Shown: piece by piece, positions 7,810 to 63,979 of the stretch | Position numbering within the stretch: the stretch's first letter is position 1 | Layout: each line of letters starts with the position of its first letter | NCBI GenBank assembly: GCA_035528155.1 | Contig: DATKZA010000035.1 | Location: 5,840 to 69,839 of the forward strand | DNA length: 64,000 nt | Direction of reading: 5' to 3' | DNA from: Patescibacteria group bacterium | Lineage (GTDB): Bacteria > Acidobacteriota > Aminicenantia > UBA2199 | Program-made: the position numbers and the translations under genes | Notes under the pieces: generated by a model | The model's database searches: none | The model's input: the letters and a program-made list of their open reading frames with translations, nothing else | What the model was told of the DNA's origin: nothing

Positions 7810-7988
7810 GCCGCCTCCTTGAATCATCCCAATGAACTGGCAGCAAGTGTCCCGCAAATCATATCACAAAAGGAAACCGGGCGGGGAGAGGCCTGCACGC
7901 TCCTGAGATCGTATTTCATATTATGTGTACCCCGCCCGTCAGGTCCCGGCATGGAATGCTTGGATTCAGGCACTTTCCAAAAATGCGG

Positions 7989-8017
7989 GTTGACAATAAA
8001 GGCAACGTTGCGCAAAA
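7989..8017 (+). promoter_or_regulatory. candidate sigma70 promoter for the Lol-like operon (TTGACA - 17 nt - CAAAAT)
   Basis: Perfect -35 hexamer, 17-nt spacer and a 4/6 -10 hexamer about 40 nt upstream of the ATG at 8058. Confidence 0.3.
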
Positions 8018-8057
8018 TGAAAAAGGTTGTTCGCTTGCGAACGAAAAGGAGATATAC

Positions 8058-8858
8058 ATGAGAAAGAAATTCTGTCCGGGTTCGTTGATTTATACAACGC
8101 TGGGTTGGCTGCTGTTTTCTTTTGCCGCCGTCGCTTTCGCCCAGGCCGCTCCCGGTCGGGCGGATGCCAGGGAGATCGTCAAAAAGATGGATGAACTGTA
8201 TCGCAGCCAATCCAGCGCGGTCGTGATGGAGATGGAGATCATTACGCCGCACTGGCGGCGAACCTTGAAAATGAATGTCTGGAGCGTCGGCATGGACAAA
8301 ACCTTCATTCGTATCGTTGAACCAAAAAAAGAGGCCGGCATGGCCACGCTGCGCATGGGCAGCGAGATGTGGAACTATCTCCCCAAGACCGACAAAGTGA
8401 TAAAAATCCCTCCCTCCATGATGATGGGATCGTGGATGGGTTCGGATTTTACCAACGATGACCTGGTAAAGGAATATACTTTCCTGGAGGATTACACCTT
8501 TGATTTTGTGGAAGTGGAAAAGCCGCAAGCGGGCGTGGTGACCGTGAAGTGCGTGCCCAGGGAAGGGTTGCCCATCGTGTGGGGAACCATCGTCGTCGCC
8601 GTCCGCGCAAAGGATCACATCCCCCTCTGGATGAAATACTACGATGAAAAGGGCAAGCTGATGCGGCAGATCGCCTACAGCGAGATCAAGGCCTTCGGCA
8701 GGCGCACCATCCCGGCGGTGATGGAGCTGGTGCCGACTCAAAAAGAGGGGAACAAAACCATTGTCCGTTACCTGGAGGCCCGATTCGACGGCGTCGTGGA
8801 GAAGGAGATCTTCACCCTGCGCAACCTGAGATCCAGGAGCCTGGCGGACGGCAAGTGA
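8058..8858 (+). CDS. LolA-like outer-membrane lipoprotein-sorting family protein (periplasmic), signal peptide
   Basis: The ATG at 8058 is preceded by AAGGAG. It has a signal peptide (LLFSFAAVAFAQA) and LolA_like-family blocks (EMWNYLPKTDKVIKIPPSMMMGSWMGSDFTNDDL). It is the first gene of the LolCDE-like cluster. Confidence 0.7.
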   Translation: MRKKFCPGSLIYTTLGWLLFSFAAVAFAQAAPGRADAREIVKKMDELYRSQSSAVVMEMEIITPHWRRTLKMNVWSVGMDKTFIRIVEPKKEAGMATLRMGSEMWNYLPKTDKVIKIPPSMMMGSWMGSDFTNDDLVKEYTFLEDYTFDFVEVEKPQAGVVTVKCVPREGLPIVWGTIVVAVRAKDHIPLWMKYYDEKGKLMRQIAYSEIKAFGRRTIPAVMELVPTQKEGNKTIVRYLEARFDGVVEKEIFTLRNLRSRSLADGK

Positions 8859-20361: not shown

Positions 20362-20907
20362 ATGGTTATGGAGACCATTGATTTCAGCGGCATCTCTTGC
20401 CAGGTGGTGCGCCGGAACCGGCGCCGGGGGGTGCGCATCGCTTTCCGCGCTGGCCGCCTGCAAATCGTCCTGCCCCGCAACCTGAATCCGCTGCCGATCA
20501 TGAACCGCCACAAGCAGTGGATATTGAAAAAGCACGAATGGTTCCGGCGGCAGCAACTCCTGGCCGAAGCATTGGAGCTCAGTCAGCGTTCGAACGAAGA
20601 ATTTTTAAGCTTGGTGCGGGACTTGAACGGGAGTTATGCCGGGGTTCTGGCGGCGCGGCCCTCGGGGATCGCTTTAAGAAAGATGAAAAGCAAGTGGGGG
20701 AGTTGCAATCCAAAGGGGAAGATCTGCCTGAACACCTGGCTGCAGGCCCTGCCTGACGAACTGATCGCCTTCGTGATATTTCATGAACTGGCCCATCTCA
20801 AGGTTCGCAACCACGGCCCCGAATTCAAGGCCCTGATCCGTTCCGCATTCCCCCATTACCGCGCCCTGGACAAAAAATTGCGGCTCTACGGCCTGAAAAT
20901 CCTTTAA
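20362..20907 (+). CDS. YgjP/DUF45-family metal-dependent hydrolase (SprT-like HExxH)
   Basis: C-terminal FHELAHLKVRNHGPEF zinc-binding motif characteristic of DUF45/YgjP. Confidence 0.7.
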   Translation: MVMETIDFSGISCQVVRRNRRRGVRIAFRAGRLQIVLPRNLNPLPIMNRHKQWILKKHEWFRRQQLLAEALELSQRSNEEFLSLVRDLNGSYAGVLAARPSGIALRKMKSKWGSCNPKGKICLNTWLQALPDELIAFVIFHELAHLKVRNHGPEFKALIRSAFPHYRALDKKLRLYGLKIL

Positions 20908-20932
20908 ATCAATACTTCAAAAAAAAGAAATA

Positions 20933-21895
20933 TTATGCCAAGAGTGTCCGAATCCAACCATCTAATAATGTATCATTTAAATAAAATGAGAATCCCAAAA
21001 CAAGTAATCCAATGAAAGAAAAACAAATGATGAGAAATAGAGAATAAAAAGTGAGTTTGAATTTTTTTCTTTTTAATAAAATAGTGGAAAACAAGAATAG
21101 GAAAAATAGACTTAAGATGAAGCCTATTAAAGCAAATTGTCCCCAAAGAAGACTTCCTAATGAAGAAAAAATAAAACAAAGAAAAAAAAGCCAGAAAATT
21201 TTCGGAAATTTTTTATGATAATATTTAAATAACAAAATCCATAAAGCGAATAAAAATACAACGTGCAATATTAACAACGGATAAGGAAAAAAATCCTGCA
21301 AATGAAAAATAATCCATTCGTTCATTTCGCTCAGTACGGGGATTTCTTTAATAATCATAACTCCAGTTAGCATATAAATCCAAAAATGACGAAAAAACCT
21401 GTGAGTTTTAGTTTCTGGAATGAATGGCTCGGTTAAGTCGGAAACGGATTTGCCTGGACCCAGAATTTCAAAATCTTCTTTGGCTTCATCGGAAAATTTG
21501 GTTCGATCGCAAAATGTCGAGGTCAAATGATCAAAAAAATTTCGATTTGCATAAACTAAATATGTTTGTCCAACAGTAAAGAAGTAAGCACAATTGGTTC
21601 TGTTCAAGCACAAAACAACAGAATTACCTTTTAATTCTCCTTTCCATACCCGGAATATGCGGAATTTGTAAGTCGGCCACACCAAACCCATCTCAGGGAA
21701 AAGCTTTGGCCATAAAGACTCAACTCGGCCTTCAAAAACGGCATCCGCTCTTAACAGCGCAATATCTGGTGATGGTGAACCGCATTTGCATGCATAAGCA
21801 ATTTCATTGGCTAAAATTAAAATTGAAAACAATAAAAAAAACAGGAATTTGAAATGAAAAGATTTTGAGAATATATTGCTTCCTAAATTTATCAT
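20933..21895 (-). CDS. secreted/membrane protein, paralog A: signal peptide (..IAYA|CKC..), Cys-containing NTR/TIMP-like N-domain, C-terminal ~5-6 TM region
   Basis: Sits in an AT-rich island. It is paralogous along its full length to the upstream gene, and its ATG overlaps that gene's stop (ATGA). An AxA signal-peptidase site is followed directly by Cys-x-Cys. The Cys spacing and the motifs SPSPDIALLRADAVFEGRVES, RVWKGEL, CAYFFTVGQTYLVYANR and TFCDRT match an NTR/TIMP-like module. Confidence 0.6.
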   Translation of the reverse strand: MINLGSNIFSKSFHFKFLFFLLFSILILANEIAYACKCGSPSPDIALLRADAVFEGRVESLWPKLFPEMGLVWPTYKFRIFRVWKGELKGNSVVLCLNRTNCAYFFTVGQTYLVYANRNFFDHLTSTFCDRTKFSDEAKEDFEILGPGKSVSDLTEPFIPETKTHRFFRHFWIYMLTGVMIIKEIPVLSEMNEWIIFHLQDFFPYPLLILHVVFLFALWILLFKYYHKKFPKIFWLFFLCFIFSSLGSLLWGQFALIGFILSLFFLFLFSTILLKRKKFKLTFYSLFLIICFSFIGLLVLGFSFYLNDTLLDGWIRTLLA

Positions 21896-22833
21896 GCCAA
21901 TAAAAAGTGAATCCAGCTGAATTTATCAAATGGGGAATGAACAAGATACCCAAAAACAAGTAATCCAAAAAAAATAAAAAATAAGCTAAAGGCAAGATAA
22001 TAAAATGCAAGCTTGAATTTTGCTTTTATAAAATGAAAAATGGAAAACAAAATTAAAATAAGCACATTCAAGCAAAAACCGATATACGGAGATCTGCTCC
22101 AAAAGAAATTTCCAACTACAGAAAAGAAAAAACATAGTAAAGAAAACAATAATATTGCAGGAAGTTTTTTATGGAAAATTATGAAAAATGAAACCCATAA
22201 ACCTAGAAAAAAAAGCAGATGCAATGCGAAAAGCGGATAGGCGAGGGGAGCACTTTCCCAAAAAAATTCAAATCCTTTAGATTCAATTAATTCATTTATT
22301 ATCATCAAACCTGACAGCATATAAATCGCAATGTGCCGGCAGAACCTGCGGATTTTGCTTTCCGGGATAAATGGAGTTGATAGATCAGAGATAAATTTGC
22401 TTTGTCCTAAAAGTTCCATGTCTTCTATAGCTTCATTGGCCTCGTTAGTTCTATCACAAATAGTGGAGTGCAATAGTTTTGAAAATTTATCTCGACTTGC
22501 ATAAACCAGATATGTTTGGCCGACACTAAAAAAATAATCACAATTGTTACCACTTGTTATGAGGTCAATGGTATTGCCCCGCAATTCCCCTTTCCATATT
22601 CGGAAAATATGGAATTTGAAAGTTTGCATCACAAAATTCGAAGCCCAGTAAGGGCGGACAAGTTTCGGCCAGACCGACTCGACCCGGCATTCAAAGACGG
22701 CATCCGCTCTGGAAAAAGCAACATCTGAAGGAGGTGTGATACATTTGCATGCATAAGCAATATCGCTGGCTAAAAATAAAAAAGAAATTAAAATAATGAT
22801 TAGAACTTTAAGTTGAAATGTTTTGCTTGGCAT
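21892..22833 (-). CDS. secreted/membrane protein, paralog B of the NTR/TIMP-like + polytopic membrane architecture
   Basis: Same architecture as paralog A (..IAYA|CKCITPPSDVAFSRADAVFECRVES.., ..NCDYFFSVGQTYLVYASR.., ..STICDRT..); SD GAGG 5 nt before the ATG. Confidence 0.6.
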   Translation of the reverse strand: MPSKTFQLKVLIIILISFLFLASDIAYACKCITPPSDVAFSRADAVFECRVESVWPKLVRPYWASNFVMQTFKFHIFRIWKGELRGNTIDLITSGNNCDYFFSVGQTYLVYASRDKFSKLLHSTICDRTNEANEAIEDMELLGQSKFISDLSTPFIPESKIRRFCRHIAIYMLSGLMIINELIESKGFEFFWESAPLAYPLFALHLLFFLGLWVSFFIIFHKKLPAILLFSLLCFFFSVVGNFFWSRSPYIGFCLNVLILILFSIFHFIKAKFKLAFYYLAFSLFFIFFGLLVFGYLVHSPFDKFSWIHFLLA

Positions 22834-22853
22834 ATTTCCTCAATAACTTTTCA

Positions 22854-24008
22854 TTAAAGGATCATATCGCTCCACAGCCGGTCGAGAAAATCCTGCCAGG
22901 GCAGGATGAGGATGCCGTCGGAGGTCAAGCGCGAGCGGGGATCCAGTGAGACCAGGTAGCAGCGGGCTTCGTGTTCCTGGCGGAAAGCCCGCAATCCCCT
23001 GAGGTGGTGGTCGCCAGCGGCCGTGGTCGACTTGATCTCCACGGCCACCTGGCCATCGCCCAGGACCAGGTCCACTTCCAATTGCGAGGCCGTCCGCCAA
23101 TAAGCGATGCCGGGATCGCGCTCCGAATAGGCCGCCCAGGCAAAAACCTCCATGACCAGGAAGTGCTCGAAGGCGCGGCCGAACAACTCGGATCCCGGCT
23201 GGACCGGTCCGCGGCGCGCAAGCCACGAAACGATGCCTGTGTCGAAAAAGAAAAATCTGGGGGCCTGGATGAGGCGGCGTTTCACCCTGCGGCGAAAGGC
23301 AGGAAGGAAGCGCCCGATCAGGGTGTTCTCCAGGATCTGGAAATACCCCTTGACGGTATGTGCGCTGACGCCGCAATCGCTGGCGATGTTCAAAAAATTG
23401 ATCATCTCGCCGTTGGATAGGGCCGCGACCTCCAGGAAACGACTGAAGGCGGGGATGTTGCGCGTTACGGCCTCGACGGCGATCTCCTCCTTCAGGTAAT
23501 CGCCGACATAGGCTTCCAGGAGTTTGCCAGGCTGCGCGCTCAAGTAGTGTCTGGGCAGCAATCCATGATTCAAAGCTTTCTGCAGAGAAAAATCGGGGAT
23601 CTCCGGGGAGGTCAGCGGCATAAGTTCATAGCGAATCGCCCTTCCTCCCAGCAGGTTGGCGTGGTTCCTTTTCAGCTTGCGGGGGCTGGATCCGCAGAGG
23701 ATGAATCGCAGGCCACGGTTTTCGATCAGCCAGTGGACCTCGTCGAGAAGGCCGGGGATCTTTTGCACTTCGTCAATGACGATCGGTTGTTTTTGGTTCG
23801 AGCCGTTCAACCCGCTCGCCTCACATTCCTGGCGCAGCCGTTCGGGATAAGTGACGAAACTGCGGTACAGGTCGGCCAGAAGAAGATCGTAATATTTGGC
23901 ATCCGGAAAGAGCGTTTTCAGCAGGGTGCTTTTTCCGGTTTGCCGCGGCCCCCACAAAAAACAGGATTCCTTTTCGCTTTGGCTCAGGACAAGTTTTCTT
24001 TTAAGCAT
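22854..24008 (-). CDS. AAA+ ATPase of the AAA_14/DUF4143 type
   Basis: Walker A GPRQTGKST, a Walker B-like IVIDEVQ, and a C-terminal DUF4143-like region. It ends 20 nt upstream of paralog B on the same strand. Confidence 0.8.
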   Translation of the reverse strand: MLKRKLVLSQSEKESCFLWGPRQTGKSTLLKTLFPDAKYYDLLLADLYRSFVTYPERLRQECEASGLNGSNQKQPIVIDEVQKIPGLLDEVHWLIENRGLRFILCGSSPRKLKRNHANLLGGRAIRYELMPLTSPEIPDFSLQKALNHGLLPRHYLSAQPGKLLEAYVGDYLKEEIAVEAVTRNIPAFSRFLEVAALSNGEMINFLNIASDCGVSAHTVKGYFQILENTLIGRFLPAFRRRVKRRLIQAPRFFFFDTGIVSWLARRGPVQPGSELFGRAFEHFLVMEVFAWAAYSERDPGIAYWRTASQLEVDLVLGDGQVAVEIKSTTAAGDHHLRGLRAFRQEHEARCYLVSLDPRSRLTSDGILILPWQDFLDRLWSDMIL

Positions 24009-43690: not shown

Positions 43691-43762
43691 TAAAAACCAA
43701 TTTGACAGTTTTTTGTCTGTTTGCCACAATGGGATTGGTTAGGAGATAAGGAAAGAGAGAGA

Positions 43763-44269
43763 ATGAACAAGATTGATACAACCAGGTTCCTGCGGCAAAT
43801 GAAATATCTGCCGGATATTATTCCTTTGGCCAATATTTTGCTGATTGTTGCATTGATTGTATTTCCTGGAGCAATTATGAATTGGAGTTTTCTCCCGGTA
43901 TTGGAAGAGCAAACAGAAATTAAATATGCCAATTATGAACCGTCAGGTTATTCATCTACGAGTGTGACTATTAAAAAAACTGGGGAAATTTATATTATTG
44001 ACCGTGAAATAGAAGATTTATCCAAAATGAAAGGTTTATTGGCTGATAGAATGGATGAATTTCAATCGAAAAGGCTTAGAATTTTTGCAGAATCAGAGGC
44101 GCCATGGGGGAAAATCATAGACGTATTGCAAGCTGCCAAGGAAGCAGGGGCAAAAATGGTGGGATTCATGATGGCAAGGGAATACAGTGTTTTGCATTAT
44201 TGGGAAATGAAAAAATTCTATCGTGAAAAGGGATTGAAAGAACCCTCGGTGTCCCAAATAACTCATTAG
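43763..44269 (+). CDS. ExbD/TolR-like biopolymer transport protein, orphan, in AT-rich patch
   Basis: N-terminal TM (LANILLIVALIVF) followed by an ExbD-like periplasmic domain (..IYIIDREI...RLRIFAESEAPWGKIIDVLQAAKEAGAKMVGF). SD present. No ExbB partner is adjacent. Confidence 0.5.
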   Translation: MNKIDTTRFLRQMKYLPDIIPLANILLIVALIVFPGAIMNWSFLPVLEEQTEIKYANYEPSGYSSTSVTIKKTGEIYIIDREIEDLSKMKGLLADRMDEFQSKRLRIFAESEAPWGKIIDVLQAAKEAGAKMVGFMMAREYSVLHYWEMKKFYREKGLKEPSVSQITH

Positions 44270-44323: not shown

Positions 44324-44842
44324 ATGAAGTTCAATCCGGAAATCCATCATCGCCGGTCCATCCGCTTAAAGGGATACGATTATTCACGGAACGGAGCATA
44401 TTTCGTGACGATGTGTTCCTGGAACCGTGAATGCATGTTTGGAGAGATCGTTAATGGGAAAATTATCTTGAATAAATTCGGTTCGATCATCGCTGAAACA
44501 TGGTTATGGCTGGAGAAACGACATGATCATGTTGGATTAGCGGATTTTGTGATCATGCCAAATCATATACATGGAATATTGCTGATTGACCGATATTTGG
44601 GCGGTTCCCGAACCGCCCCTACACGAAGAATAAAACCATTGGGACGAATTCTGGGGGCGTTCAAGACACATTCGACCAAGTTGGTGAACAAATACCGGCA
44701 GACAGCTGGAGCTCCGATTTGGCAGCGCAATTATTATGAGCGCATCATCAGGGATCAATGCGAATTTGATCGAATTGGCAATTATATTGTCTCAAATCCT
44801 GCGAATTGGAATGATGATGAAAATAATCCCATCAATTTATAA
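44324..44842 (+). CDS. REP-associated tyrosine transposase (RAYT, IS200/IS605 TnpA-like HuH Y1)
   Basis: HuH motif MPNHIHGIL and a downstream IWQRNYYERIIRD / GNYIVSNPANW region with the catalytic Tyr; flanked by REPs. Confidence 0.75.
   Translation: MKFNPEIHHRRSIRLKGYDYSRNGAYFVTMCSWNRECMFGEIVNGKIILNKFGSIIAETWLWLEKRHDHVGLADFVIMPNHIHGILLIDRYLGGSRTAPTRRIKPLGRILGAFKTHSTKLVNKYRQTAGAPIWQRNYYERIIRDQCEFDRIGNYIVSNPANWNDDENNPINL
44597..44624. repeat. REP palindrome copy inside the RAYT coding sequence
   Basis: GGGCGGTTCCCGAACCGCCCCTACA encodes LGGSRTAPT in frame, in the loop after the HuH motif. Confidence 0.55.
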
Positions 44843-55057: not shown

Positions 55058-55594
55058 CTATTTTTTGGTGATGACAAACTCGGCGCGGCGGTTCTGAAAG
55101 TAGGAATCTTCGTCCTCGCCCTGAACCAGCGGCTTGTTTTTGCCGTAGGAGATGATCTTGATCTTGGCGGCATTCATGCCCAGGGAGACCAGGTAATTTT
55201 TAGCGGCTTCGGCTCTTTTTTCGCCCAGGGCGATGTTGTATTCAATGGTGCCCCTTTCGTCGCAATGGCCCTCGATCAAGACTTCCACGCTGGCGAACTT
55301 AAGCAGCCAGTTGGCGTTGGCCTGAATAATGGCCTTCATGTCTTCCCGGATCGTGTATTTGTCGAAGTCGAAGTTGATCCTTTTTAGTATCTGATCCTTG
55401 TTTAGTTCTTCCAGGGATTTCTGCTGGAAGATCTCTTCCTCGCTCAGCACGGGTTTTTCGACCTGGGGGGTTGGTTCTTCCACTTTTTCCACCACGGGCT
55501 CTTGAACGGGCGCGACCTTAGCGGCTTTTTTACCGCAGGCATTAAACATCAGGATTAGTGACAGTGCTAACAAAATCAACAGACATTTTTTCAT
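55058..55594 (-). CDS. pal: peptidoglycan-associated lipoprotein Pal
   Basis: Lipobox (LMFNAC) and a C-terminal OmpA-like domain (..IEGHCDERGTIEYNIALGEKRA..). Confidence 0.85.
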   Translation of the reverse strand: MKKCLLILLALSLILMFNACGKKAAKVAPVQEPVVEKVEEPTPQVEKPVLSEEEIFQQKSLEELNKDQILKRINFDFDKYTIREDMKAIIQANANWLLKFASVEVLIEGHCDERGTIEYNIALGEKRAEAAKNYLVSLGMNAAKIKIISYGKNKPLVQGEDEDSYFQNRRAEFVITKK

Positions 55595-55665
55595 GGATCC
55601 TCCTTTTATTATTTATACTAAAAATATAATATATAAGAAATATTTTGTCAAATGTATCGGGGGCT

Positions 55666-56967
55666 TTATTTGGGTGATTTCGGCGATTTCTGCCATTTCG
55701 GCATTTTGTTCTCGCCGCTGGCCGTGATCTGCCGGACATTACGGCCATCGTAATCGACCAGGTACAGCTGATACTTGCCGCTGCGGTTCGAGGAAAAGAC
55801 CAGGTGCCGGCCGTCTGGCGACCAGGAGGGATTTTCGTTGCGGCCGGCGTTTTCGGTCAATTTGCTGATCTCGTTGCTTTTCAGGTTGAAGACGTAAATA
55901 TCGAAGCGGTTCTCGATGCGTGAAACAAAAGCCAGGCGCATGCCGTCGGGCGACCAGGCGGCCGAATCGTGGTAGGAACCTTCGGTGGTGATGCGGCGGA
56001 TGTTGCTGCCTTCGGCATCCATGATGTAGATCTGCGGTGTGCCGTTGCGTTGGGAAGTGAAGGCGACCTCGCGTCCGTTGGGACTCCAGCAGGGCGATGT
56101 GTCGATGGCCGGGTTGAAGGTCAGCCGCTTTTCCTGGCCGCTTTTCATGTTTTTCAGATAAATTTCGGCATTGCCGTTCTTGGAAGACGTGTATACGATC
56201 TGCTCGGCAGTGGGAGACCAGTCGGCCGCGTAATTGCTGCCTCCGCTTGACAGCAATTCCGTTTTCCCGGCATAGATGTCAAACATGAACAGGTCGGGAT
56301 TGAGGTTACGGTACGACGTGTATAGGATTTTTTCATTGTCGGCGCTCCAGGAAGGCAGCATGTCGATGGCGCTGCTGAAGGTGATGCGGATCGGGCGGAA
56401 ACCGTCGTAGTCCATGATGTAAATATCCTTGTCCCTGCCTGTTTCGGATACATAAACGATCTTCGATGTAAAAAGCGGTTTTTCACCGAAATGCTTCAGC
56501 ATCTCGTCGGCGGCGCGGTGGGCGATCAGGCGGCTCAGTTCCTTTTTGCCGCCGAAATTCCTACCGAAGATGAACCTGGCGCTTGCTACTTCATACACTT
56601 TAAATGAAAAAATGATGCGTTCGTCGGCTGTGATTTCCAACTGGCCGGAAATGAGGATATTGGCCTGGATTGAGGCCCAATCCTTGAAATTGATGGCGTT
56701 GTGATTGAAGCGGGGAATATAGGAATAATGCTCGCGCGGCACCATTTTGAAGATGCGGGAAAACTCAAGGTCTTTCCATATGGTCTCGTAGATCGTACTT
56801 TTTACTTCGCTTTTTTGCGCCGCTGCTTCGCTGAACTGGAATTCCGGCATGGCCACCGGGATCATGGGCAACCCTTCCTTGATGCGGATGGTGATCTCCT
56901 CCTGGCCGCGCAGTTGCCAGCTCAACAAGCAGATGAAAAGAAACAGGACTATTTTTTGTATTTTCAT
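55666..56967 (-). CDS. tolB: Tol-Pal periplasmic beta-propeller protein TolB
   Basis: Repeated PxWSPDG propeller motifs. Start taken at MKIQK with a GGAG RBS. The start codon (ATG) overlaps the tolA-like stop. Confidence 0.85.
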   Translation of the reverse strand: MKIQKIVLFLFICLLSWQLRGQEEITIRIKEGLPMIPVAMPEFQFSEAAAQKSEVKSTIYETIWKDLEFSRIFKMVPREHYSYIPRFNHNAINFKDWASIQANILISGQLEITADERIIFSFKVYEVASARFIFGRNFGGKKELSRLIAHRAADEMLKHFGEKPLFTSKIVYVSETGRDKDIYIMDYDGFRPIRITFSSAIDMLPSWSADNEKILYTSYRNLNPDLFMFDIYAGKTELLSSGGSNYAADWSPTAEQIVYTSSKNGNAEIYLKNMKSGQEKRLTFNPAIDTSPCWSPNGREVAFTSQRNGTPQIYIMDAEGSNIRRITTEGSYHDSAAWSPDGMRLAFVSRIENRFDIYVFNLKSNEISKLTENAGRNENPSWSPDGRHLVFSSNRSGKYQLYLVDYDGRNVRQITASGENKMPKWQKSPKSPK

Positions 56968-57749
56968 TATTTCTCCCATTCGAATTCAAAATGAACGACC
57001 AGGTATTGCGAGGAAAAATCATTGGGCAGGGGAGCGAAGGGTGCGGCGTTTTCGATGGCCCTCCGGGCTGATAGATCAAGGGAACTGACGCCGCTCGGGC
57101 GTTCCAGCCGCAGGTCGCTGATTTCACCGTTGCGGCGGATGATGAAATAGACGCCGGTGATGTGTTTGCCTTTCAGCCCCGGAGCGACCAGTGAACTGTA
57201 CCATGAAGAAGATATGCGGTTGCGTAAAAGGTCAATGTAATATGCATGCGGGAAATAACCTCCGGGGCCGCCCGGGCCGCTGCCCCAGCCATTGCCATCG
57301 CCGCTGCCGCCTCCACCGCCGGAAATTCCGGTTTTCAGCCCTTCGCTTGTGACGTTACCCTGGATCGGAGTTTCGCTTTTGGCGATGGTCCTTTCCTTGC
57401 GGACAACCGAGATCATTTTGTCATCTTCAACCGTTTTTTTGCTCTCTTTATCGGGAAAGCGCAGAGGAGATTGAAATTTCTTTTCCACCGTCAGGTTCTT
57501 GACGCCGCCGCCCTTTTCCTCGATCAAAGCGGCCTGGGTCGGGGCTTCCTGTTTGAGCGTACCGGCTGCCTTGCCGCTGCCGCCTCCACCGCCTTTGCCG
57601 CTGCCCCCCCCGCCGCCTCCGCCGAGTTGGACCAGGTCAACGTAGTAGGTCATTTCACCGCTGTTTTTCCGCGCCGGGGGAATCATGAATAGCACGGCCA
57701 GGGAGATGTGGAGTATGACTGAAAGCAACAGTGTGGACTTGAATTTCAT
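56967..57749 (-). CDS. tolA: TolA/TonB-like energy-transducing protein (N-terminal TM, Gly-rich linkers, TonB_C-like C-terminal domain)
   Basis: Its position between tolR and tolB, a single N-terminal TM, and a C-terminal domain with the YP..A.....G.V motif pattern. Confidence 0.6.
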   Translation of the reverse strand: MKFKSTLLLSVILHISLAVLFMIPPARKNSGEMTYYVDLVQLGGGGGGGSGKGGGGGSGKAAGTLKQEAPTQAALIEEKGGGVKNLTVEKKFQSPLRFPDKESKKTVEDDKMISVVRKERTIAKSETPIQGNVTSEGLKTGISGGGGGSGDGNGWGSGPGGPGGYFPHAYYIDLLRNRISSSWYSSLVAPGLKGKHITGVYFIIRRNGEISDLRLERPSGVSSLDLSARRAIENAAPFAPLPNDFSSQYLVVHFEFEWEK

Positions 57750-62692: not shown

Positions 62693-62867
62693 AAGATGTG
62701 TGGCTTAAAATAAGATTCTTATCCTGAGCAGAGGTCAAGATTTGCACAGAGGATGACCGTTCGCCCTCACTTTTTCCACAACAGTTTCACGCGGTGCGCT
62801 TGAAATTTGTTTTTTTTCCCTTGAGGTATAATCGACCCATGGGGCAAATTGATTTTCCTATCAGTTA

Positions 62868-63245
62868 TCAGTCAATATCACCCTCAATTTCACCAAAATC
62901 CTCAATGTCTGGCTCTTCAATCTTGTCGGGGACTTCAAAAGGCGCAACTAATGTTGTTGGTTTATTAACATTCGTCTCAACTCTCTTTTTATTTCTCACT
63001 TTGATGTCTTTTTTTGAAGAACATTTTTTCCCAAGGAGAGGTCGAGGTGGTGAAGGTGAGGGCGGTGAGCCCAATAATACAGATATTGATTTCATTATGG
63101 GTGTGTCATTGTCAGCATTTAAAATAGGAGTGATGATTAATGCACCTATAATAATGAGGTGTAAAAAAATCGAGACAGGAAAAAATAACCACCTTTTAGT
63201 TAATCTCTTTTTTTCAAGCAAATCACAAAATAAAACCTTTTTCAT
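62868..63245 (-). CDS. TonB N-terminal-only protein (TM anchor with SxxxH motif + Pro-rich spacer, no C-terminal TonB domain)
   Basis: AAGGAGGT lies 5 nt before the ATG. The TM helix FFPVSIFLHLIIIGALII carries the SxxxH signature of TonB. It is followed by SPPSPSPPRP and then an acidic tail. No TonB_C-like sequence appears in any frame downstream. Confidence 0.4.
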   Translation of the reverse strand: MKKVLFCDLLEKKRLTKRWLFFPVSIFLHLIIIGALIITPILNADNDTPIMKSISVLLGSPPSPSPPRPLLGKKCSSKKDIKVRNKKRVETNVNKPTTLVAPFEVPDKIEEPDIEDFGEIEGDID

Positions 63246-63412
63246 GTTTACCTCCTTAAATCTTTTCTTACATTATTTATATGTGATTTTTTGGAGGTTT
63301 TTTCGTTCTGAATCAAGATTTAGAACAAGTTTATAACTTAATTACATGCTGCTGCATTTAAATAAATATACTGATAAACTCAAGAACTCAAACACTGTCA
63401 CCTAGATCTTGT

Positions 63413-63979
63413 TTATTGCCGGTTTGCTTCGAAAGTGCCGAGGATCAATGCATCTCCAACATCGTTATAAAGATAACCGGCCATATGATCCGCATCACTC
63501 ATAACTCCCACAAACATAACATGCTTGGCAGAGCCTGTTGATTCGTCAATATAATAATGGCAGGGGAAGCGTAGATTAAGACCATCAAAATCATAGGTCT
63601 GTTTTCTTTTATTGTAGAGCCAAACTTCTTCGAGTTCGTTAAAAGAGAATTGCCATTCTTCCGGGAGGTTGAAACGAAAAGGTTCGGAGCCGGCATTATA
63701 GGTCACTTTAAAATCCCAGGTACCAACAACATCAAAAAGCTTCAATTCGTTGATCATGACAGCTTCAATAAAACCAACTCTTTGGGTGCCATCCTTTAAC
63801 TCACCAGTAATATGCCTGGATGATAACCTGGTACAAATAAAATTAAACTGTAGAGTTGTATGGCGATATCTGTCTTCATAGGGGAAACTTAACCGGATTT
63901 CATCTCCATCAGTGGTGTATGTCCCTTTATTTTCTGCAAATAAATCAAAATTACCGTCATCATACAAGGTTATAATCAT
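63413..63979 (-). CDS. hypothetical protein (188 aa), AT-rich region, no signal peptide
   Basis: An uninterrupted ORF with moderate complexity; no recognisable motif. Confidence 0.35.
   Translation of the reverse strand: MIITLYDDGNFDLFAENKGTYTTDGDEIRLSFPYEDRYRHTTLQFNFICTRLSSRHITGELKDGTQRVGFIEAVMINELKLFDVVGTWDFKVTYNAGSEPFRFNLPEEWQFSFNELEEVWLYNKRKQTYDFDGLNLRFPCHYYIDESTGSAKHVMFVGVMSDADHMAGYLYNDVGDALILGTFEANRQ

Follow-up and report, generated by a model that had tools for sequence, protein, structure and literature searches.

Tissue inhibitors of metalloproteinases (TIMPs; PF00965, MEROPS I35) are presented in papers on their evolution (PMC4860685, PMC9409782) as an old family of eukaryotes or metazoans with ties to the extracellular matrix, and a free N-terminal cysteine, Cys1, is needed for zinc chelation in these proteins (PMC4860685). 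Here we describe a tandem pair of bacterial genes, copy A and copy B, whose products carry a TIMP-like NTR domain (N-domain) directly behind the signal peptide, followed by a domain of four transmembrane (TM) helices. The pair is encoded in the window, by which we mean the whole stretch of 64,000 nucleotides of contig DATKZA010000035.1 that was analysed. Compared with vertebrate N-TIMP-3, -2 and -1, the window proteins differ by a Lys at residue 2, the lack of a Cys13-Cys124 disulfide, the lack of the C-domain, the presence of the four-TM domain and the bacterial host.

Among described bacterial systems, likeness is found in Tim (LMRG_00714) of Listeria monocytogenes, a bacterial, membrane-associated and TIMP-like protein linked to a metalloprotease (PMC8235301). 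The likeness of Tim to TIMPs is confined to its predicted structure (Phyre2, about 60% confidence) and does not extend to its sequence; Tim is a lipoprotein with a lipobox, encoded beside the metzincin Mtz, and the study describes its cleavage by Mtz but does not show inhibition of Mtz (PMC8235301). By that description, the window proteins are set apart from Tim as sequence homologues of TIMPs with a site of the signal peptidase I (SPase-I) type and no adjacent metzincin. The potempins of Tannerella forsythia share the logic of a proposed envelope-tethered shield against the organism's own secreted peptidases; they are described as outer-membrane lipoproteins whose genes lie immediately upstream of those of their target peptidases (PMC9890683). 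Both their gene linkage and their anchoring are thus unlike those of the window pair. The NTR modules of agrin (NtA), PCOLCE and meteorin, as well as C345C, are embedded in larger proteins and have no free N-terminal Cys, whereas the window N-domain differs from such modules (PF01759) by a predicted free one. Clear homologues of the N-domain are found in uncharacterised bacterial proteins of the PF00965 type, which share with the window pair a profile match (hhalign 99.7%), the AxA-CxC junction, motifs, four Cys and surface tethering. They depart from it by a Ser at residue 2 (114/115) and by their anchors, which are a hydrophobic C-tail, T9SS or CarboxypepD_reg domains and not a four-TM domain. 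The window N-domain is thus a divergent member of a known family whose bacterial branch is already visible in databases through its PF00965 labels; the orphan four-TM fusion, Lys2 and the diverged, probably coupled pair are new. The parts of the two genes are as follows.

21892..22833 (-), copy A, TIMP-like N-domain plus four-TM protein of 313 aa (open reading frame; exact match to P0128/HUU04763.1)
20933..21895 (-), copy B, TIMP-like N-domain plus four-TM protein of 320 aa (open reading frame; HUU04762.1)
22750..22833 (-), signal peptide of copy A, 28 aa, MPSKTFQLKVLIIILISFLFLASDIAYA; predicted SPase-I cut after A-Y-A, by the -3/-1 rule
21791..21895 (-), signal peptide of copy B, 35 aa, ending FLFFLLFSILILANEIAYA; predicted SPase-I cut after A-Y-A
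22366..22749 (-), TIMP-like N-domain of copy A, mature residues 1-128, with Cys1, Cys3, Cys70 and Cys98
21416..21790 (-), TIMP-like N-domain of copy B, mature residues 1-125, with Cys1, Cys3, Cys67 and Cys94, and Lys2
21895..22365 (-), juxtamembrane helix and four-TM orphan domain of copy A (hydropathy, profile search)
20936..21415 (-), juxtamembrane amphipathic helix and four TM helices of copy B (hydropathy, alignment, profile search)

TIMP homology of the N-domains

The fold of both N-domains is firmly established, and their homology to TIMPs is supported by several independent lines, together with the conserved cysteine pattern and the conserved context of the cleavage site. The homology was traced through bacterial relatives, which were located by a pattern scan of GTDB genomes and have only the N-domain in common with the window pair. 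When the profile of the window family was aligned with a profile of 46 relatives, hhalign gave 99.7% and E=1.8e-25 from Cys1 on. A profile built from the relatives alone matched in turn N-TIMP-3 (E=1.2e-8) and N-TIMP-2 (E=8.8e-8), both from the mature Cys1, and the combined profile matched N-TIMP-2 with E=8.9e-9, placing the four conserved Cys on Cys1, Cys3, Cys72 and Cys101 of TIMP-2. The family-only profile had a single PDB match, again TIMP-2, weak (E=0.27) and with the same colinear alignment; a phmmer search of the proteins against PDB sequences gave no match. The gathering score of PF00965 was passed by 3 of 10 relatives, over profile positions 1-2 to about 108-112 of 183. An earlier note on this DNA, made without database searches, had proposed the NTR/TIMP reading from an alignment by eye to the TIMP N-terminus; that alignment was reproduced by HMMER against TIMP-2, and the reading itself is borne out by the profile matches.

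In agreement with the profiles, the top Foldseek matches of a full-length shallow model (pLDDT 66) were NTR/TIMP structures only. A model of the N-domain alone, built from 80 sequences, reached a pLDDT of 91.9 and a pTM of 0.86, and comparison of the structure model identified an OB-fold of NTR architecture. In its mature form, copy A contains Cys at positions 1, 3, 21, 70 and 98, and copy B at positions 1, 3, 61, 67 and 94; the only ones conserved across the family are 1, 3, 67/70 and 94/98. The invariant Cys67/70 and Cys94/98 align with the partners in the TIMP disulfides Cys1-Cys70 and Cys3-Cys99, as the spacing of the cysteines had led the earlier note to expect, and both disulfides are predicted here. 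Neither protein matched any other characterised family in the Pfam, NCBIfam, PDB, PADLOC and PHROG searches.

The N-terminus follows the same pattern. Both copies begin with a classic n/h/c signal peptide that ends in I-A-Y-A and is followed by C-K-C. The junction motif is carried by 115 of the 120 listed bacterial relatives, and among these 115 the residue at -1 is always Ala (115/115), that at -3 is Ala in 110/115 and that at -2 is mostly Arg, Ser or His. The combination of Ala at -3 and -1 with such residues at -2 indicates a canonical AxA site for SPase-I and fits a lipobox poorly. Indeed, the lipobox pattern [LVI][ASTVI][GAS]C, which calls for a residue at -2 that is small or hydrophobic, was not matched, the window proteins reading A-Y-A-C and the relatives carrying mostly R/H/S/N/Q at -2. 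Judging from the sequence, Cys1 is therefore most likely exposed as a free N-terminus by SPase-I cleavage after A-Y-A, in line with what had been anticipated. The N-terminal CxC is kept in every homolog surveyed, and the TIMP-like module stands at the mature N-terminus throughout, a feature that sets TIMPs apart from embedded NTR modules. The occurrence in bacteria of bona fide TIMP N-domains with a conserved Cys1, predicted to be free, should come as a surprise to TIMP specialists.

As a separate observation, the signal peptide of copy A shows 93% identity with the P0003 signal peptide and 82% with the P0005 one, against only 46% and 44%, respectively, for the mature N-domains; P0129 was also part of this comparison. 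It is unusual for a signal peptide to be more conserved than the mature protein, and gene conversion, or else constraint acting on the 5' region, may be responsible.

The group of TIMP-like N-domains comprises at least 516 bacterial clusters. The hosts of the relatives include Myxococcota, Cyanobacteria, Paenibacillaceae (Cohnella/Paenibacillus), Acidobacteriota and Planctomycetes, among others, and the shared features are a cleavage junction of the form A-C-x-C (cut before the first C), VF.G.V, WKG, C-G-Y-x-F-x-x-G-E-T-Y-L-V-Y-A, C-x-R-T and four conserved Cys. Most of the 120 listed relatives are 170-190 aa long; a PF00965 label had been precomputed on 11 of the 120, one is named 'Tissue inhibitor of metalloproteinase' by JGI and several are labelled MYXO-CTERM. 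A hydrophobic C-tail with a basic tip was found in 106/115 relatives, and others carry sorting domains of the type IX secretion system (T9SS) or CarboxypepD_reg domains. These differing tails suggest that tethering to the surface has been achieved by several unrelated means, of which the four-TM domain of the window pair is one more.

Some relatives deviate in other ways. A protein of Paenibacillus validus NBRC 15382 (L012, 7917-8876) is the one other polytopic fusion found, an independent one: it combines a TIMP-like N-domain (PF00965 E=0.0055) with another polytopic domain, for which no relation to the window four-TM domain was found (hhalign 0.4%). In four proteins, the TIMP-like domain is interrupted by an insertion of 70-100 aa, and an additional Cys near position 10 recalls Cys13 of TIMPs: three come from Acidobacteriota (L018 7536-8477, L019 7203-8489 and L029 7341-8555) and one from a metagenome-assembled genome (MAG) of Verrucomicrobiia (L030 2790-3758). 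L018 ends in a CarboxypepD_reg-like domain (Pfam); a similar motif was seen in L019, L029 and L030 by eye only.

The membrane domain and the family that carries it

The two genes are paralogs over their full length, with 50% identity across 317 aligned columns (BLASTP, E=2e-84), a value that places paralogy well above chance. NCBI annotates both products (HUU04763.1 for copy A and HUU04762.1 for copy B) as 'hypothetical protein'. That two minus-strand paralogs overlap by 4 nt, as had been noted, holds with exact coordinates, and all the motif blocks quoted as common to them were found in both sequences. Divergence is uneven, with 59% identity in the N-domain and 43% in the TM domain. When copy B is compared with its ortholog L033 (80% identity), the ratio of nonsynonymous to synonymous substitution rates (dN/dS) is 0.21, which identifies copy B as a genuine gene under purifying selection; spurious open reading frames are ruled out by this value together with the conserved motifs. 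A recent tandem duplication is likewise ruled out, given that the copies are 50% identical to each other and that the 80%-identical ortholog of copy B lies in a single-copy locus.

The earlier note had counted five to six TM helices. Hydropathy revises this to four strong segments and one weak amphipathic helix: in the 320-aa copy B, the Kyte-Doolittle segments fall at about 205-223, 233-251, 256-274 and 286-304, and the weakly hydrophobic amphipathic helix at about 165-183, within a conserved stretch of about 161-183. The latter contains the invariant residues E161, R166, R169 and G178, and this juxtamembrane segment is the best-conserved stretch of the C-terminal half; the membrane domain as a whole has 13 invariant positions. 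In the eight members compared (8/8), loops L1 and L3 contain 5-9 Lys/Arg and zero acidic residues, and loop L2 and the C-tail contain 0-2 Lys/Arg. The basic loops predict a four-TM topology in which the N-domain and the C-terminus lie outside, and L1 and L3 in the cytoplasm. The outside is probably the periplasm, since the Tol-Pal genes of the window and LptF/G on the contig of a relative make a diderm envelope likely. The Tol-Pal-like cluster (55058-57749, minus strand) encodes an OmpA-family protein in the Pal position, TolB and a TonB/TolA-like protein with TonB C-terminal domains. Given these diderm genes, the NCBI label of the source MAG, 'Patescibacteria group bacterium', looks doubtful.

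When the membrane domain served as the query of an exhaustive hmmsearch over 1.84 billion representatives, the window family alone was retrieved, and the Foldseek PDB matches of the full-length model included no structure of a membrane protein. The TM domain has no conserved charged, polar or catalytic intramembrane residues and evolves faster than the N-domain, so that it is read most economically as an anchor with some further role. The claim that the architecture is undescribed stands in so far as the TM domain is an orphan and its fusion to the N-domain occurs only in the window family; it does not extend to the N-domain, which already bears PF00965 labels in bacteria.

The full-length architecture was found in 7 clusters, the query included, in a search of 5.8 billion proteins. 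An exhaustive search with hidden Markov models added the paralog and one more member, and with the C-terminally truncated P0088 the family comes to about 10 clusters in all. The fusion occurs in only a few genomes, all uncultured. In a group of at least 516 clusters, the window pair is the rarest architecture, and it also has a change at residue 2, the residue that determines specificity. Every member has A-[YF]-A before C-K-C and two more invariant Cys. An apparent exception, P0007 (L004, about 7867-8768, called at 255 aa), has the CKC and the end of its signal peptide in another frame; the frameshift lies between residues 59 and 71, and P0007 is a pseudogene or else the product of misassembly in AT-rich sequence. 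The orthologs are single-copy and occupy mostly the same slot, in the order FtsK, the AAA_14/DUF4143 gene, the family gene and those for a YgjP-like protein, a beta-CASP protein and two M16 peptidases. The most divergent member, P0006, has an unrelated gene context, and synteny is for this reason best read as relatedness and not as functional coupling.

Candidate functions

The reading that we favour, tentatively and at a little short of an even chance, is that both proteins are membrane-tethered periplasmic inhibitors of zinc proteases of the TIMP type. According to this proposal, export through the Sec pathway and SPase-I cleavage after A-Y-A would leave Cys1-Lys2-Cys3 free at the N-terminus. 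A TIMP-type NTR OB-fold of about 125 residues would be held by disulfides equivalent to Cys1-Cys70 and Cys3-Cys99, and the lineage-specific four-TM domain would serve as its tether in the inner membrane, the two termini lying outside and the basic loops being cytoplasmic. In this position, the N-domain could inhibit a zinc metalloprotease at the membrane surface by tight binding, the alpha-amino and carbonyl groups of Cys1 chelating the catalytic zinc. Residue 2 of TIMPs is Ser or Thr (Ser in TIMP-2, -3 and -4), and in TIMP-protease complexes its side chain sits in the S1' pocket; in all members of the window family it is Lys. If the mechanism has been kept, Lys2 would imply a different target specificity: its side chain may enter the S1' pocket of a target with a preference for basic residues at P1', instead of a hydrophobic pocket of the MMP type. 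The two copies, diverged and probably coupled in translation, might address two targets or form a hetero-oligomer.

A series of observations weighs against inhibition. Pfam and NCBIfam scans of both proteins returned nothing even at E<=10, PF00965 included. At the sites aligned with the third N-TIMP disulfide (Cys13-Cys124/126), no Cys is present in the family and in most relatives, and the TIMP C-terminal subdomain with its three disulfides is absent, the four-TM domain standing in its place. Residue 2 is Ser in 114 of the 115 relatives, the sole Lys being that of P0088, the truncated member of the window family. With its 13 invariant positions, the membrane domain may be more than an anchor, and many NTR modules (agrin NtA, PCOLCE, C345C) are not inhibitors. 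With regard to targets, no secreted metzincin was found in the window, and the 62 genes neighbouring 18 diverse relatives show no enrichment of any peptidase family, the top family there, HAD hydrolases, accounting for 5/62; guilt by association therefore gives no target. The M16 pair and the YgjP-like HExxH protein were considered as partners and rejected, their synteny being limited to one narrow clade and lost beside P0006. In addition, M16 enzymes fall outside the metzincins, and YgjP-like proteins are presumably cytoplasmic. Finally, no sequence-homologous bacterial TIMP has been characterised in the literature searched, and the phrases 'bacterial TIMP' and 'prokaryotic TIMP' do not occur in a searchable literature of about 8 million papers.

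Part of this evidence would be accommodated if the N-domain were a non-inhibitory NTR module that binds or senses a periplasmic or envelope ligand (a protein, a glycan or a peptidoglycan fragment), with the juxtamembrane helix and the four TM helices using that binding for signalling, scaffolding or gating. We regard this as possible but rather unlikely. Agrin NtA binds laminin and the NTR module of PCOLCE binds its partners, and such modules come close behind in structural score (PCOLCE 9.8, agrin NtA 9.8, meteorin 9.3). A binding role would also suit the absence of a genetically linked protease, a Lys2 that is unlike the Ser/Thr of inhibitors, and the invariant E161, R166, R169 and G178, which suggest more than passive anchoring. 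With these modules the relation holds at the level of the fold alone: the NTR/C345C profile PF01759 has no match in the window proteins and reaches only sub-threshold scores in 2 of 10 relatives (13.4 and 12.7 bits for a cut-off of 21.9), and agrin scores E=0.4-0.7 with the bacterial profile, which is not significant.

Two features of the surroundings bear on a further alternative.

22854-24008 (-), AAA_14/DUF4143 ATPase, 20 nt upstream of copy A; PADLOC PDC-S01, E=1.8e-52
20751..22900 (no strand), AT-rich island over both genes, GC 0.35 against about 0.58 in the flanks

It is quite improbable, in our estimate, that the membrane domain is the functional core, as a small channel, transporter or membrane-active factor on an acquired AT-rich island, with the TIMP-like domain as its lid or plug; in one version, it might form a joint defence or conflict module with the ATPase. 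Such a view draws on the low GC content at third codon positions (GC3) of the island, unlike the host, on the PDC-S01 match so close upstream of copy A and the recurrence of the ATPase beside the family gene in L001, L002, L033 and L034, and on the constraint on the TM part, which is 80% identical between copy B and its ortholog in a gene with an overall dN/dS of 0.21. However, the family gene stands without the ATPase in L004 and on the contig of P0006, the ATPase itself has a host-like GC3 of 0.74, and the two proteins have no PADLOC, PHROG or viral-fold match. The faster evolution of the TM domain (43% against 59% identity) and its lack of conserved charged intramembrane residues also speak against a functional core in the membrane.

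Two other possibilities start from the cysteines at the mature N-terminus, and both are very improbable. Were the proteins lipoproteins, SPase II would cut before Cys1 and the lipid on Cys1 would leave neither a free amine nor a Cys1 disulfide. The Cys directly after the signal peptide is compatible with this, and I-A-Y-A-C fits the permissive PROSITE lipobox pattern. The TIMP-like Tim of Listeria is a lipoprotein as well (PMC8235301). Against lipidation stand the residues of the relatives at -2 (mostly Arg, His or Ser) and -3 (Ala), which make an AxA site and a poor lipobox, the alignment of Cys1 with the disulfide-bonded Cys1 of TIMPs, whose partner Cys is invariant here, and the four TM helices, which make a lipid anchor superfluous. 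Scarcely more credible is a periplasmic metal-binding or redox module for copper or zinc, built from the N-terminal CxC on an OB-fold scaffold. A CxC at a free N-terminus and the multicopper oxidase adjoining the relative L005 would agree with it, but that oxidase is one neighbour in the absence of any enrichment, and both Cys have conserved partners at TIMP positions and are thus expected to be oxidised in the periplasm.

Should inhibition by a TIMP-type mechanism be the function, the window pair would provide a membrane-tethered, genetically tractable bacterial TIMP, a way into the question of TIMP origin and possibly inhibitor scaffolds of new specificity; otherwise, it would represent a free-N-terminal NTR module with some other role. 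A wider proposition, conceivable although unlikely, is that bacteria own functional TIMPs, in the form of widespread envelope-tethered inhibitors with a free Cys1 that serve for self-protection or act against proteases of competitors or predators. If this were true, the window pair would be the inner-membrane form, with Lys2 for basic P1' targets and with the helix and the four TM segments coupling protease capture to a membrane response. TIMP would then have a prokaryotic history, whether through an ancient origin or through horizontal transfer one way or the other.

Gene arrangement and base composition

The expression signals of the pair lie at its junction and just upstream of it.

21892..21895 (-), ATGA stop/start overlap of copy A and copy B (read from sequence)
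22837..22841 (-), Shine-Dalgarno-like GAGGA, 4 nt upstream of the ATG of copy A (read from sequence)

Copy A ends in TTG GCA TGA, and the ATG of copy B lies inside the 4-nt ATGA overlap, an arrangement that makes translational coupling of the two copies probable. The GAGGA of copy A is located 20 nt past the stop codon of the AAA_14/DUF4143 gene, which is encoded on the same strand. An Rfam search of the window gave nothing, and neither copy A nor copy B was matched by the PADLOC and PHROG profiles. A mobile-element or phage origin was considered and set aside, the two proteins having no PHROG, PADLOC, BFVD or plasmid support; the single match in a plasmid collection is to a 5.5-Mb Bacillus record and covers the N-domain only.

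The base composition of the pair stands out from its surroundings. Copies A and B have a GC content of 0.32-0.35 and a GC3 of 0.30-0.32, and every neighbour has a GC3 of 0.69-0.80, the membrane-spanning part of FtsK included. The same contrast is observed at orthologous loci, with a GC3 of 0.28 against 0.53-0.66 nearby in L001 (3317-4267) and of 0.31 against 0.58-0.80 nearby in L004 (8001-8768). Since it has been kept at loci whose proteins are about 42% identical, the composition is old or actively maintained and not the fading mark of a recent transfer. AT-rich codon usage preserved in GC-rich genomes constitutes a separate puzzle. Low values also occur elsewhere in the window. Three of the open reading frames concerned have no match in Pfam or PHROG: 44324-44842 (+), with a GC3 of 0.46, and 62794-63336 and 63413-63979, with GC3 values of 0.31 and 0.37, the region 62794-63979 spanning both strands. 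A further one, 43721-44269 (+), has a GC3 of 0.36 and a weak match to ExbD/TolR.

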